Below are positions 2,026 to 4,244 of a stretch of DNA of 4,244 bases, in pieces. Numbering within the stretch: position 1 is the stretch's first letter; every line of letters starts with the position of its first letter. The notes under the pieces are model-generated. The model did not search any database. It was given only the letters and a program-made list of their open reading frames with translations, and was not told the DNA's origin. The position numbers were made by a program, and so were the translations under genes. Location: the IMG/VR virus record IMGVR_UViG_648276659_000008; one strand, 5' to 3'. The DNA is from a virus (Duplodnaviria; Heunggongvirae; Uroviricota; Caudoviricetes).

Positions 2026-2210
2026 TGTGCACATCCTTTTTGTATCGGACGTAAACGGGCCAGCATTGAAAGAATGCATATTTTATTTAATAACTCCCGT
2101 TCGTGTTTTCTCTTGTTAATGGCATCTTCAGTAAATACAGGGTTACTGATAGTGACACCAATTTCAAAACAACCTTCAGACGTATTAACGTTTGGTAATA
2201 ACGTTTCCAT
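2022..2210 (-). CDS. dicB: DicB cell-division inhibitor (62 aa)
   Basis: METLLPNVNTSEGCFEIGVTISNPVFTEDAINKRKHERELLNKICILSMLARLRPIQKGCAQ. Near-identical to my recollection of K-12 DicB over most of its length. GAGGA SD 7 nt upstream of ATG at 2210. Position (~180 nt downstream of dicF, immediately upstream of ydfD) matches the Qin dicB operon. Confidence 0.93.
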   Translation of the reverse strand: METLLPNVNTSEGCFEIGVTISNPVFTEDAINKRKHERELLNKICILSMLARLRPIQKGCAQ

Positions 2211-2227
2211 TATCGCGTCCTCAACAA

Positions 2228-2384
2228 TGAATTTTGTGATGCAGTGCCTGGTGCCTCCAGGTGACGTTAACCAGTTAACAATTAACGCCGGGTTAGTTGA
2301 TGCTCGTTACGCCCGTAAAATACCGCCTTACTGCTTTAACTGTTCCGCGTGCGCATAGCCGCATTCACCGCATCACAAAATTCA
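2228..2384 (-). repeat. 15-bp perfect inverted repeat pair bracketing the dicF-dicB spacer (arms 2228-2242 and 2370-2384)
   Basis: Plus strand 2228-2242 tgaattttgtgatgc is the exact reverse complement of 2370-2384 gcatcacaaaattca. In the minus-strand transcript one arm sits just 3' of the DicF terminator and the other 5 nt upstream of the dicB SD. Confidence 0.7.
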
Positions 2385-2388
2385 CTTT

Positions 2389-2446
2389 AAAAAGGGCGGC
2401 AGAGCAGTCACGGAGTAAAACTGATACCGCCAAATGTCACCAGAAA
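2389..2446 (-). ncRNA. dicF: DicF small regulatory RNA (53-nt body 2394-2446 plus U-tract to 2389)
   Basis: Minus-strand sequence UUUCUGGUGACAUUUGGCGGUAUCAGUUUUACUCCGUGACUGCUCUGCCGCCC followed by UUUUU matches the DicF sRNA as I recall it, with GGCGG...GCCGCC terminator-like pairing. Sits between ydfC-like and dicB as in Qin. Confidence 0.9.
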
Positions 2447-2781
2447 ATTGATAACAGAGGGCGTTGTAGCGGGGTTGTCACTTAAGCGTATGGTCAACCT
2501 GACAACCCGGTGCATTTTCTGGAGCAATGGAGGAAACCCCAGCCATACTTACCGCCGCGCCATTTCGCGGAGTGCCACAACCGGAAGCGCACGGTCGAAC
2601 TAAATTTAACGACACCGTACAGAGAGACCAATTTCGCCGTGCGCTTTCGCGTTATGCCCTGACTTTTCAGGGACATATCCTTTCAGTAAACTGTCAGTGC
2701 CGGATGCTCACCCGTGTCCGGCGCACGCACTCCACCTGACCAGTGGAGAACTCCTTAATTACCAACCCTCAGGAGGGTGAA

Positions 2782-3060
2782 ATGGATAAAAAGCAAATTG
2801 AGGCCCTGCAATCTATTATTGAAGAACAAGATGAAGCTATCAGGATTCTTTCATATCGCACTGATATGATACTAAATATGCTTTCTGCATTAACGGCTGC
2901 GCTTGGTGGTACAAAAACAAACGTATACCGCGAAGTTGTTATTCAACAGATAGATAAATTTGAAAAAACCATACCAGGTATTAATGCTCATCTTGCAGAA
3001 CAAGAGAAAGACCATGCTCTTATGGCAATTTCTTCAGTAGCTCTCCCGAAAGTTGAGTAG
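2782..3060 (+). CDS. Hypothetical acidic 92-aa protein, antisense to the operon; AT-rich moron-like gene
   Basis: ATG at 2782 preceded by perfect AGGAGG SD (2771-2776, 5-nt spacer). Open frame of 92 codons in AT-rich DNA (about 37% GC by manual count, against roughly 43-55% in sampled flanking segments). MDKKQIEALQSIIEEQDEAIRILSYRTDMILNMLSALTAALGG... is predicted helical with one short hydrophobic stretch. I recognise no family. Confidence 0.6.
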   Translation: MDKKQIEALQSIIEEQDEAIRILSYRTDMILNMLSALTAALGGTKTNVYREVVIQQIDKFEKTIPGINAHLAEQEKDHALMAISSVALPKVE

Positions 3061-3421
3061 TTTTAATTGTTGTTTTGAAATAATCACTGCTTTCACATTT
3101 GAGTGATTTCATGGCAATCCAAATGCGGGCCTCTGTGCCTGCATTTGGTTCCAGTTGCTGTAGACGTTTTGCGTCTTCCAAAAGTAAGGCGATAATGTGT
3201 TTCAGCTTCTCATCATTTGCTTGATTCTTGTTTTCAGGCGAATTCTGTCCGCCGAATAGGCGCTTCTCTTCATACAGACCTATAAAGGCACGACGCACGT
3301 TACCGGATATAGTATCGATGGTTTCCTTTTCTACAGTACTCAGGTCAAGAGTCGCCAGTTGAGAGCGAACCACATTCGCTGCCATTTCCTGGAATGGCAT
3401 TGGTAAATCTTTAAATTCCAT
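3020..3421 (-). CDS. Hypothetical 133-aa protein in operon orientation; its 3' end overlaps the convergent plus-strand gene by 41 bp
   Basis: ATG at 3421 with GAGG SD 7 nt upstream; 22 nt downstream of the ydfC-like stop. MEFKDLPMPFQEMAANVVRSQLATLDLSTVEKETIDTISGNVRRAF..., soluble and helical-looking, no family recognised. The last ~100 nt (3020-3120) are much more AT-rich than the rest of the gene. Confidence 0.7.
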   Translation of the reverse strand: MEFKDLPMPFQEMAANVVRSQLATLDLSTVEKETIDTISGNVRRAFIGLYEEKRLFGGQNSPENKNQANDEKLKHIIALLLEDAKRLQQLEPNAGTEARIWIAMKSLKCESSDYFKTTIKTTQLSGELLKKLP

Positions 3422-3443
3422 TATTAGCCTCGTTGGTTAGCTA

Positions 3444-3662
3444 TTAACGTGGGTATGTAACCATTCTGGCAATGCTTAATGCCGCTGCTTTTTCCAGCCT
3501 GGTGATATCCTGCTCCAGAGCGGACAGATTTTCAGCCTGCTTAGTCCTGGCTTCATTGGCCCATTTCAGATCCTGCACTGCATTAATTTTCTGGCGCATC
3601 CACTCATAAAGTTCATCATCGGTATAGTCTGGCGCGATGATGACGGGTTCTCGTTTCTGCAT
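3444..3662 (-). CDS. ydfC: YdfC-like prophage protein (72 aa)
   Basis: MQKREPVIIAPDYTDDELYEWMRQKINAVQDLKWANEARTKQAENLSALEQDITRLEKAAALSIARMVTYPR. GAGGA SD 8 nt upstream of ATG at 3662. Size and position (third gene of operon) match Qin ydfC; sequence identity is a vague recollection only. Confidence 0.8.
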   Translation of the reverse strand: MQKREPVIIAPDYTDDELYEWMRQKINAVQDLKWANEARTKQAENLSALEQDITRLEKAAALSIARMVTYPR

Positions 3663-3691
3663 ACTGATTCCTCGCGGTGCTGTTTCGCTTA

Positions 3692-3820
3692 TCAGCCGTT
3701 AGATTTTCCCGAACTGGAAAGCGCCTGTTTAAATTCACTGAAGCTGAGAGCTTCTTCGCCTTCGGCAAGACCATCGAAGTATTCTTCGTAAGCCTTTTCC
3801 ATGATTGTGTCGAAATCCAT
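3692..3820 (-). CDS. ydfB: YdfB-like small acidic prophage protein (42 aa)
   Basis: MDFDTIMEKAYEEYFDGLAEGEEALSFSEFKQALSSSGKSNG. ATG at 3820 lies 1 nt after the ydfA-like stop (TGAtATG), with GGTGAG SD inside the upstream gene. 42 aa as K-12 YdfB. Not in the ORF track (below its size cut-off). Confidence 0.75.
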   Translation of the reverse strand: MDFDTIMEKAYEEYFDGLAEGEEALSFSEFKQALSSSGKSNG

Positions 3821-3821
3821 A

Positions 3822-3977
3822 TCACTCACCTGAGTTTCTTTCCAGCCAGCGACGGGCACCATTTTCGGTTTTAAACGTTTTGCTTTTGGTATACGTCATC
3901 GCGGTGAATGTGCCGTCCTGGTTGGGAAACACGCCGTACACCAGAGATTCGTTGTTGCCAAGCTCGATAGTATCCAT
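3822..3977 (-). CDS. ydfA: YdfA-like small prophage protein (51 aa), first gene of the operon
   Basis: MDTIELGNNESLVYGVFPNQDGTFTAMTYTKSKTFKTENGARRWLERNSGE. GAGG SD ~8 nt upstream of ATG at 3977. 51 aa and first after the promoter, as Qin ydfA (Rac ydaF is a paralogue). Not in the ORF track (below its size cut-off). Confidence 0.8.
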   Translation of the reverse strand: MDTIELGNNESLVYGVFPNQDGTFTAMTYTKSKTFKTENGARRWLERNSGE

Positions 3978-4048
3978 GCTGACCTCATTTCCCCTTAACG
4001 CCGGGTGGCGGAACTAAAACCTACAGCGCCGTGCTGTTCTTGATAGAA

Positions 4049-4077
4049 ATATTAGTAACGCGGATATTTTAAGTCAA
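4049..4077 (-). promoter_or_regulatory. Sigma70 promoter of the dicB-type operon: -35 TTGACT (4077..4072), 17-bp spacer, -10 TAATAT (4054..4049)
   Basis: Minus-strand read cTGTTGACTtaaaatatccgcgttacTAATATttc; both hexamers 5/6 to consensus with optimal 17-bp spacing, ~70 nt upstream of the ydfA-like start. Inverted AAATAT/ATATTT arms (4047-4052, 4064-4069) overlap the -10 and spacer and could be an operator. Confidence 0.55.
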
Positions 4078-4174
4078 CAGTATGGCGTATGATATTTTTG
4101 ATTTGGTAACTATGTAAATGTTTTTTCAAGGGAAAAATATTAGTTATACAGCTGATTTGCAGAAGTTATGGCAC

Positions 4175-4210
4175 AAAAAAACCCGCCAAAAAGGCGGGTT
4201 TTTTTTTTTT
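4175..4210. terminator. Bidirectional rho-independent terminator (A7 - CCCGCC aaaaa GGCGGG - T12)
   Basis: Perfect 6-bp GC stem with 5-nt loop, flanked by an A-run on one side and a T-run on the other, so it works as an intrinsic terminator on either strand. On the minus strand it would end transcription coming from a gene beyond the window end (expected immunity repressor, dicA-like). Confidence 0.8.
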
Positions 4211-4244
4211 GGGTGGGGGGGGGGGGGGGGGGGGGGGGGGGGGG
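4211..4244. other. Terminal poly-G homopolymer (gggt then G30); probable sequencing or assembly artefact at a contig end
   Basis: Uninterrupted G run at the extreme 3' end of the window directly after a T12 homopolymer, typical of two-colour chemistry poly-G read tails or a homopolymer-induced contig break. Confidence 0.6.

Follow-up and report, generated by a model that had tools for sequence, protein, structure and literature searches.

The window, by which is meant the whole stretch of 4,244 nt that was analyzed, is a piece of an Escherichia coli Rac/Qin-type lambdoid prophage and carries part of its early-left operon. The minus strand encodes ydfA, ydfB, ydfC, a 133-aa open reading frame (ORF), the DicF RNA, dicB, ydfD, and an exonuclease, and the plus strand has a 105-aa ORF (Table 1). 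Both dicB and DicF are intact. Many complete E. coli chromosomes match positions 3400 to 4210 at 99% identity, with coverage of at least 80% in 135 genomes. Read in the minus-strand sense, positions 3978 to 4210 are likely to form the left edge of the immunity region of this prophage, and their parts are best interpreted, with good but not full confidence, as a terminator closing the repressor transcript, an OL/PL-type operator-promoter, and a leader of about 65 nt before ydfA. An earlier note on this DNA, made from the letters of the sequence, had described a promoter, two inverted repeats, and a terminator here, and all of these are present in the window sequence at the positions that it gave.

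Table 1. Genes, RNA, and regulatory features of the window
Feature	Position	Strand	Remarks
dicB	2210-2022	minus	Pfam, 129 bits
ydfD		minus	Same series as dicB
Exonuclease gene		minus	Leaves the window at the left end
DicF RNA	2445-2394	minus	Rfam, 77 bits (gathering score, 48)
105-aa ORF	2743-3060	plus	
133-aa ORF	3421-3020	minus	
ydfB and ydfC (3662-3444)		minus	
ydfA	3977-3822	minus	Pfam DUF1391, 96 bits
Shine-Dalgarno sequence GAGG	3983-3986		After the leader box
Leader box GTTCCGCCACCCGGCGTTAAGGGGA	3990-4014	minus	Includes small hairpin CGCC-ACCC-GGCG (3999-4010)
Leader inverted repeat ACAGC-ACGGC-GCTGT	4023-4037	minus	Arms ACAGC (4023-4027) and GCTGT (4033-4037)
Candidate OL1 AAATATCCGCGTTACTAATATTT	4047-4069		AAATAT-N11-ATATTT; arms AAATAT (4047-4052) and ATATTT (4064-4069); covers spacer and -10
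Main early-left promoter	4049-4077	minus	-35 TTGACT (4077-4072), 17-nt spacer, -10 TAATAT (4054-4049)
OL2-like site, weak, AAATATCATACGCCATACTGTTG	4075-4097	minus	Dyad score 12/20, not above background
Upstream promoter-like site TTTACA-18-TATCAT	4089-4118	minus	10/12 consensus; 41 nt upstream of main promoter
Upstream regulatory block	4119-4174	minus	44/56 positions invariant among 33 variants
OL3-like site, weak	4135-4157		Inside upstream block; dyad score 13/20, not above background
Bidirectional intrinsic terminator	4175-4210		Stem 4175-4187/4193-4205, loop 4188-4192
Poly-G tail GGGTGGGG...	4211-4244		Sequencing/assembly artifact truncating the contig

The main early-left promoter lies 65 to 70 nt upstream of ydfA, has a spacing within the 16 to 18 nt of sigma-70 promoters, and is directed into the early-left operon. 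Promoter-like sites were enriched in a consensus scan (4 found versus 0.8 expected), in which this promoter matched 9 of 12 consensus positions (5/6 in the -35 and 4/6 in the -10 hexamer). In the K-12 dicA-ydfA intergenic region, dicBp (TTGACC-17-TAATCT) aligns exactly under the TTGACT-17-TAATAT of the window. Downstream of the promoter, the leader and ydfA are nearly identical in the window and K-12, whereas upstream of it the two sequences are unrelated, and on this alignment the switch from unrelated to near-identical sequence at the promoter reads as the classical mosaic edge of an immunity region. The sequences upstream of ydfA fall into 15 types among 80 viral contigs that carry the gene, and at least eight immunity types have one layout in common, consisting of a TTGAC-type -35, a 17-nt spacer, a -10, an ATCAA motif 5 to 8 nt farther on, and the common leader. 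Among 33 sequence variants, the hexamers of the main promoter are nearly invariant. The promoter dicBp of K-12 is located upstream of ydfA and is the sole promoter found for the operon, and deletion of dicA derepresses this promoter 22-fold (PMC10448788). On the strength of the K-12 alignment, the layout of at least eight immunity types, and the location of dicBp upstream of ydfA in K-12, positions 4077 to 4049 are taken by positional homology as the counterpart of dicBp and PL, the lambdoid early-left promoter. The claim of the earlier note that a near-consensus sigma-70 promoter drives the operon is therefore upheld as to the promoter, although "near-consensus" is a generous description of a 9/12 match. 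Transcription is predicted to start at about positions 4044 to 4040, within a conserved ATCAAG; no published transcription start for dicBp was found in the open-access literature.

The first inverted repeat, AAATAT-N11-ATATTT, was proposed in the earlier note to be a repressor operator. Perfect repeats with 6-nt arms and spacers of 0 to 15 nt are no more frequent than expected by chance (2 observed versus 1.1 expected in shuffles; P = 0.30), and the same holds for the class to which the second repeat belongs, with 5-nt arms and loops of 3 to 8 nt (4 observed versus 1.5 expected; P = 0.09). Because the repeats are statistically unremarkable, the case for function must rest on comparison with other sequences. 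In relatives of this module, the intergenic region between the repressor gene and a ydaS-like gene (positions 7294 to 7402 of the relative L001) contains a promoter, TTGATC-17-TAATAT, that is directed toward the ydaS-like gene, and the spacer and -10 of this rightward promoter are overlapped by a dyad, ATTAGC-GGG-GCTAAT. The 23-mer containing the OR dyad, TAAAATTAGCGGGGCTAATATTT (L001 positions 7351 to 7373, outside the window), was used to scan both strands of the window, and positions 4047 to 4069 were the unique best match, with agreement at 15 of 20 specified positions (P = 0.014 relative to shuffles of the promoter region itself). The symmetrized dyad matched the same site at 17 of 20 positions, a score reached by none of 500 shuffles. 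With the six shared -10 positions set aside, the match was 11/14 (P = 0.07). Comparison of shorter words (k-mers with k of 14 to 18) found none shared between the PL and OR sites, and only the 22- to 23-mer dyad comparison is informative.

The PL site and the OR dyad have further properties in common. The dyad center lies 4 nt before the -10 hexamer in both. The four half-sites of the PL and OR sites (AAATATCCGC, AAATATTAGT, TAAAATTAGC, and AAATATTAGC) suggest, by their sequences, a consensus of AAATATTAGC-N3-GCTAATATTT. With at most one mismatch, the OR half-site AAATATTAGC is found at two sites only in the window, 4047 to 4056 and 4135 to 4144. Across 33 variants of the module there is almost no change in the blocks TTGACTTAAAATAT and ACTAATAT but free variation in the central CCGCGTT, and the OR site likewise has conserved flanks around a variable center; the outermost TT of the right arm (4048-4047) is also variable among relatives. 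At the aligned position K-12 has ATGTTAGTCATGGCTAATCT, which matches the DicA operator Oc at 14 of 20 positions; Oc has been defined genetically as TTGTTAGTCATAACTAACAA (PMC3441716). The resemblance of OL to OR is moderately supported, and the shared -10 accounts for part of the match. As judged from these comparisons, positions 4047 to 4069 are a credible but unproven candidate for an OL1-type operator, and the reading of AAATAT-N11-ATATTT as an operator is plausible.

The sequence upstream of the main promoter contains additional sites that may contribute to regulation. A promoter-like site, TTTACA-18-TATCAT, scores higher in the consensus scan than the main promoter (10/12 versus 9/12) and may be a tandem secondary promoter. 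Its -35 hexamer is conserved in relatives, its -10 varies among TATCAT, TATTAT, TATAAT, and CATCAT, and the aligned position in K-12 reads TTACCA-18-TAGCAT. The conserved block farther upstream holds a second copy of ACTAATATTT at 4144 to 4135 (direct repeat D1). The candidate second and third operators, at 4075 to 4097 and 4135 to 4157, have dyad scores of 12 to 13 of 20, no better than background elsewhere in the window, and direct repeats D1 and D2 hint at such sites. D2 consists of the left half of the former site, AAAATATC, which repeats the left half of the proximal site 28 nt downstream. The site at 4075 to 4097 overlaps the -35 of the main promoter, and we infer only that it may be an OL2-like site.

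The second inverted repeat, ACAGC-N5-GCTGT, was said in the earlier note to overlap the -10 or the start site as expected for an operator. It overlaps neither, being located within the transcribed leader a short way past the predicted start, at about +5 to +20. The repeat is invariant at 13 of 15 positions among the 33 variants, and its local fold has a free energy of -6.1 kcal/mol (z = -2.05). Stems occur at the same place in four leader types, formed by ACAGC/GCTGT (window), ACACC/GGTGT, GCAC/GTGC, and CAACGA/TCGTTG. Six immunity types with differing operators (TGTTAG.., TGAGTTTTCTCA.., and CTTAGGTT..) carry one identical leader repeat, ACACCGCACGGTGT, which means that the repeat does not track repressor specificity, and the window's leader repeat does not resemble the OR half-site. 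This repeat most likely forms a stem-loop at the 5' end of the RNA instead of serving as an immunity operator, and the earlier assignment is not sustained. RNAalifold did not recover the 5' stem-loop from eight leader types, since the MAFFT alignment leaves the differing stems out of register. Folded as a whole, the leader shows no stability beyond that of shuffles (z = +0.97), so that thermodynamic support is limited to the local hairpin.

The remainder of the leader includes a box that is nearly invariant across all immunity types, stands before six different first genes, and recurs in K-12 Rac. Its small hairpin is closed by a C-G pair in the window, by T-A in K-12, and by T.G in most others. 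Searches of Rfam returned no family for the leader or promoter region, and an insert of about 130 nt that is present in other immunity types gave neither an Rfam match nor excess stability. It is conceivable, though doubtful, that the leader of about 65 nt serves Rac/Qin-type early-left operons as a cis-acting RNA element in its own right and is not a mere recombination linker. The parts of such an element could be the 5' stem-loop (4037-4023) and the box GTTCCGCYACCC(C)RGCGTTAAGGGGA (4014-3990); the leader is retained behind at least eight operator types, and its stems change in sequence but stay paired.

At the far end of the region, the intrinsic terminator has a GC core of CCCGCC/GGCGGG (4182-4187/4193-4198), flanked by a run of A on one side and a run of T extending to 4210 on the other, and a predicted free energy of -20.3 kcal/mol (z = -4.3 versus shuffles). 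On the minus strand, transcription of the repressor gene would stop here, upstream of the operator-promoter, as at t-imm in lambda. The stem at this place is CCGAC/GTCGG in every relative, from which the window allele differs. A BLAST search of 5,426 complete E. coli genomes found the window stem allele at this locus in none of them, and exact-pattern scans of species-representative, viral, and metagenome collections found no instance of it joined to this locus. The 24-nt core of the terminator is identical to that of the terminator adjoining ogr in P2-like prophages. The window stem may be a rare allele of natural origin, a small patch acquired by recombination, or the product of errors at the contig tip. 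An origin of the hairpin as a fold-back artifact was rejected on two grounds: the departure from the reference extends to the left arm, and the DNA past the loop is not a reverse-complement copy of what lies upstream. A match to the Rfam family STnc370 at 4135 to 4210 was likewise set aside, with 44 bits against a gathering score of 54; like other weak matches, it is driven by the terminator. The poly-G that follows the terminator is a sequencing or assembly artifact and is nonbiological. It occurs in no relative; all of them run GTTGTGGATGGGGTAGTGAGCGG... into the repressor gene.

The gene that lies beyond the terminator can be seen in the relatives. In E. coli NCCP15648 and 83972, a gene for a 153-aa helix-turn-helix (HTH) protein is located on the same strand as ydfA, with its stop codon about 24 to 25 nt past the terminator, and is followed by divergent ydaS-like and ydaT-like genes and then by replication genes. 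This synteny holds widely: in about 55 IMG/VR contigs with a repressor of 98 to 100% identity, the order is repressor, terminator, and this PL region in all cases, and the repressor and divergent genes are beyond the terminator in all relatives examined (L001, L002, Escherichia phage Rac-SA53, and the approximately 55 IMG/VR loci). The 153-aa protein has an HTH_3 domain as its only Pfam match, an N-terminal domain that matches that of lambda CI (E = 3e-4), and matches to PHROG transcriptional-repressor families. No peptidase (S24) domain was detected in it, and RecA-mediated cleavage is therefore not expected. RacR was rejected as the repressor, being unrelated to the 153-aa protein. Orthology to DicA was also rejected; BLASTP aligned only the C-terminal 42 residues (38% identity) and did not align the HTH domains. 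No DicA operator (Oc-like, with up to 3 mismatches) is present in the whole window, and the aligned K-12 operator site is replaced in the window by unrelated sequence. By these sequence criteria, the module of the relatives is an immunity type other than DicA (Qin). The earlier expectation of a dicA-like repressor just beyond the terminator is borne out in the relatives insofar as an HTH gene is located there, but this gene is dicA-like only in architecture. The dicA/dicC-like pair that the earlier note proposed to look for corresponds, in the relatives, to an HTH repressor that is not a DicA orthologue and to partners that are ydaS/ydaT-like and not dicC.

The module can be compared with four known systems. 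The dicBp promoter and the DicA/DicC switch of the K-12 Qin prophage were reportedly described by Bejar et al. in 1988. The window shares with Qin the operon ydfABC-dicF-dicB-ydfD, the aligned promoter hexamers upstream of ydfA, the leader box, an operator-like dyad over the spacer and -10, and, as far as the relatives indicate, a short repressor gene immediately upstream on the same strand whose product lacks a self-cleavage domain. In contrast to Qin, the window lacks the DicA operator TTGTTAG-N6-CTAACAA and has two extra ORFs between ydfC and dicF, and the module has a clear intrinsic terminator between repressor gene and promoter; where Qin has dicC, the relatives of the window have the divergent ydaS/ydaT-like genes. 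The lambda OL/PL region shares the order of repressor gene, terminator (t-imm), and operator-overlapped leftward promoter, an early-left operon ending in recombination, xis, and int genes, a CI-like N-terminal domain, and an operator sequence common to PL and PR. Unlike lambda, the window contains no N gene or recognizable nut site, the repressor of the module has 153 aa and no detected S24 domain, only one strong operator is evident, and the operators are about 23 bp in length, versus 17 bp in lambda, and of a different sequence.

The third system is prophage CP-933P of E. coli O157:H7, an experimental precedent for the operator reading, in which PL933P has the -35, -10, and operators of PR933P and is subject to repression by the CI-like and Cro-like proteins PaaR2 and YdaS (PMC8630535). 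CP-933P and the module have in common a CI-like HTH repressor with divergent ydaS and ydaT, PL hexamers equal to those of PR, and an OL that resembles OR. CP-933P differs in having paaA2-parE2 toxin-antitoxin genes after the repressor, different genes downstream of PL, and operators that are 18-bp palindromes with the consensus half-site GTTTAGTAA. The fourth system is a deposited complete phage genome, that of Escherichia phage Rac-SA53 (KU052037), to which the module belongs according to its match: the 153-aa repressor gene and the position of the terminator are the same, and the PL-operator region and leader are 91% identical. The immunity genes of Rac-SA53 are annotated as dicA/dicC, the first gene after its leader is rac11-like instead of ydfA, and its terminator stem is CCGAC/GTCGG.

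The region is thus probably an ordinary repressor-controlled early-left promoter of a lambda-like prophage that drives the dicB/DicF cell-division-inhibitor operon. Sigma-70 RNA polymerase would start at about 4044 to 4040 from TTGACT-17-TAATAT, and the transcript would cover ydfA-ydfB-ydfC, the two extra ORFs, DicF, dicB, ydfD, and the exonuclease gene. In the lysogen, a short repressor with a lambda-CI-like HTH N terminus and a DicA-like C terminus would keep the promoter off by binding the dyad at 4047 to 4069 over the spacer and -10, probably aided by the weaker upstream sites, and would exclude polymerase in the manner of K-12 dicBp and lambda PL. The repeat at 4023 to 4037, situated in the transcribed leader, would most likely form a 5' RNA stem-loop.

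Several alternatives to this arrangement were considered. The operon might be driven mainly or additionally from TTTACA-18-TATCAT (4118-4089), in which case the repeat at 4047 to 4069 would be a roadblock in the early-transcribed region or would have no function. This site has the top consensus score, an invariant -35, a TATAAT or TATTAT -10 in some relatives, and a promoter-like K-12 counterpart in the alignment, and lambda has a tandem promoter, pL2, about 42 bp upstream of pL1. Across types, however, it is the downstream TTGAC-17-(-10) promoter that keeps a fixed distance to ATCAA and the leader, and the upstream -10 is weakened to CATCAT or GCATCAT in several relatives, and this reading is considered unlikely. 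We also regard it as quite unlikely that AAATAT-N11-ATATTT is a chance by-product of an AT-rich promoter, which yields such a repeat because ATAT is self-complementary, and that the repressor binds elsewhere (for example, at 4119 to 4174) or reads direct repeats. Such a view would accommodate the lack of enrichment over shuffles, the variation of the outer two T residues of the right arm, the possible reading of the conserved TAAAATAT and ACTAATAT as direct repeats, and the better conservation of the upstream block than of the proximal site. It does not account for the selection by the OR dyad of exactly 4047 to 4069 in 4.2 kb with the same center relative to the -10, for the conservation of the first 8 nt of the spacer beyond the needs of a promoter at both PL and PR, or for the DicA-operator-like site that occupies the same place in K-12.

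A role for ACAGC-N5-GCTGT as an operator at which the repressor would block transcription initiation or early elongation appears extremely improbable; its proximity to the start site and its near invariance within the window's immunity type fit such a role, but the repeat is unlike the OR half-site, is not above chance, and folds as a small RNA hairpin, and its equivalent is a single sequence behind six types with differing operators. The earlier note had raised the further possibility that the repressor is truly absent. The window, however, stops in poly-G about 24 nt before the position of the gene end in relatives, so the absence of the repressor cannot be inferred from it, and this scenario finds no support. 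A version in which the repressor gene is missing or replaced in the source genome, with the odd terminator as a recombination junction left by cargo insertion or deletion and the operon deregulated, could draw on the absence of the CCCGCC/GGCGGG allele at this locus from the E. coli genomes and the other collections and on the hairpin core shared with the ogr-adjoining terminator of P2-like prophages. Against this version, the poly-G end carries no information on what follows it, and the operator-promoter region, from position 4174 inward, is identical to the most frequent variant, a variant that in every case occurs with the 153-aa repressor. In K-12, cells that lose DicA or are depleted of it induce dicB strongly and form filaments, and dicBF is toxic when derepressed (PMC10448788, PMC3441716). 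With dicB and DicF intact in the window, a repressor-less state would be counterselected, and we consider it very unlikely. The terminator allele of the window is nevertheless unlike that of every relative, and the gene beyond it in this genome is therefore probably, but not certainly, the same repressor gene.

The repressor-controlled early-left promoter described here belongs to a known kind of system, being the PL/dicBp-type promoter of an immunity type common among E. coli prophages, and is of little importance beyond annotation. That the repressor seems to be lacking is an artifact of the contig end and serves as a warning. The analysis locates the point at which a toxic operon of cell-division inhibitors (DicB, DicF, and YdfD) is controlled and offers a concrete 23-bp candidate site for testing in an immunity type with unmapped operators. 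If the leader is an RNA element, it may act in mRNA stabilization, translational control, or factor-dependent antitermination in phages without a recognizable N or nut, and its conservation may be of interest to those who study early transcription in prophages.

The short transcribed leader between the PL-like promoter and ydfA contains a box that is near-invariant over at least eight immunity types, as the ydfA-carrying prophages that differ in operator and upstream sequence are grouped here. This leader box precedes six different first genes, including ydaG in the Rac prophage of K-12, and contains a small hairpin, CGCY-ACCC(C)-RGCG, whose closing pair shifts among types from C-G to T.G to T-A. 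No Rfam family was found for the box. In other immunity types, a conserved segment of ~130 nt (CCCACAGAATGCAGGGCAATACTTCGAG...GGTTCAACTTTAATAACTATGCAGCAGG) separates the PL-like promoter from the common leader box; this segment is absent from the window, has no match in Rfam, and folds with no excess stability (z = +1.46).

The promoter region has a few multi-allelic hot spots, which are found even among repressor modules that are 98-100% identical, and the noncoding DNA surrounding them is near-invariant throughout. On the repressor side, the terminator stem CCCGCC-AAAAA-GGCGGG was found only in the window, whereas all relatives carry CCGAC-TAAGAC-GTCGG. The window stem may be an allele that is simply rare, a patch introduced by recombination, or the product of errors at the contig tip. 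The same 24-nt terminator core, with no differences, adjoins ogr in P2-like prophages (L152, positions 403-426). The window terminates in a poly-G run, a typical product of dark-cycle calls in two-color sequencing; the run is nonbiological sequence, and because of it the contig halts ~24 nt before the repressor gene.

Features of the promoter, leader, and downstream regions (window coordinates unless a locus is named)
Feature	Position	Strand	Remarks
Full-length DicF sRNA	2394-2445	-	77 bits
STnc100 match	2178-2396	-	31 bits, below gathering score of 47
105-aa ORF	2743-3060	+	between ydfC and DicF
133-aa ORF	3020-3421	-	between ydfC and DicF
Leader box	3990-4014	-	GTTCCGCCACCCGGCGTTAAGGGGA
Leader-box hairpin	3999-4010	-	within leader box
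Hot spot, promoter region	4045-4048	-	TTCT between -10 and start
Hot spot, promoter region	4057-4063	-	spacer center CCGCGTT
Hot spots, promoter region	4091, 4105	-	single positions
Terminator stem allele	4182-4198		CCCGCC-AAAAA-GGCGGG
Poly-G run	4211-4244		34 nt (GGGTGGGG...), terminal
~130-nt segment	L089, L092, L093, L107, L125, L132, L138		upstream of ydfA leader box
~130-nt segment	L004 (K-12 Rac)	-	upstream of ydaG

Two convergent, mutually overlapping open reading frames in the window, of 133 and 105 amino acids, are lacking in the Qin prophage of K-12. Neither had a match in Pfam; they match the PHROG families phrog_1363 and phrog_18692, which are annotated as being of unknown function. 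E. coli strains NCCP15648 and 83972 carry both of these reading frames, under hypothetical annotations. In NCCP15648, the interval between DicF and dicB is occupied by an insertion (L001, positions 3961-4928) comprising a gene for a Rha-family regulator and a truncated second copy of dicB, which both the window and strain 83972 lack. A match to STnc100, scoring below the gathering threshold, follows DicF in the window and spans the DicF-dicB spacer. The same pairing of DicF with an STnc100 match is found in K-12 Rac (L004, positions 1723-1966), where it adjoins kilR/kilS.
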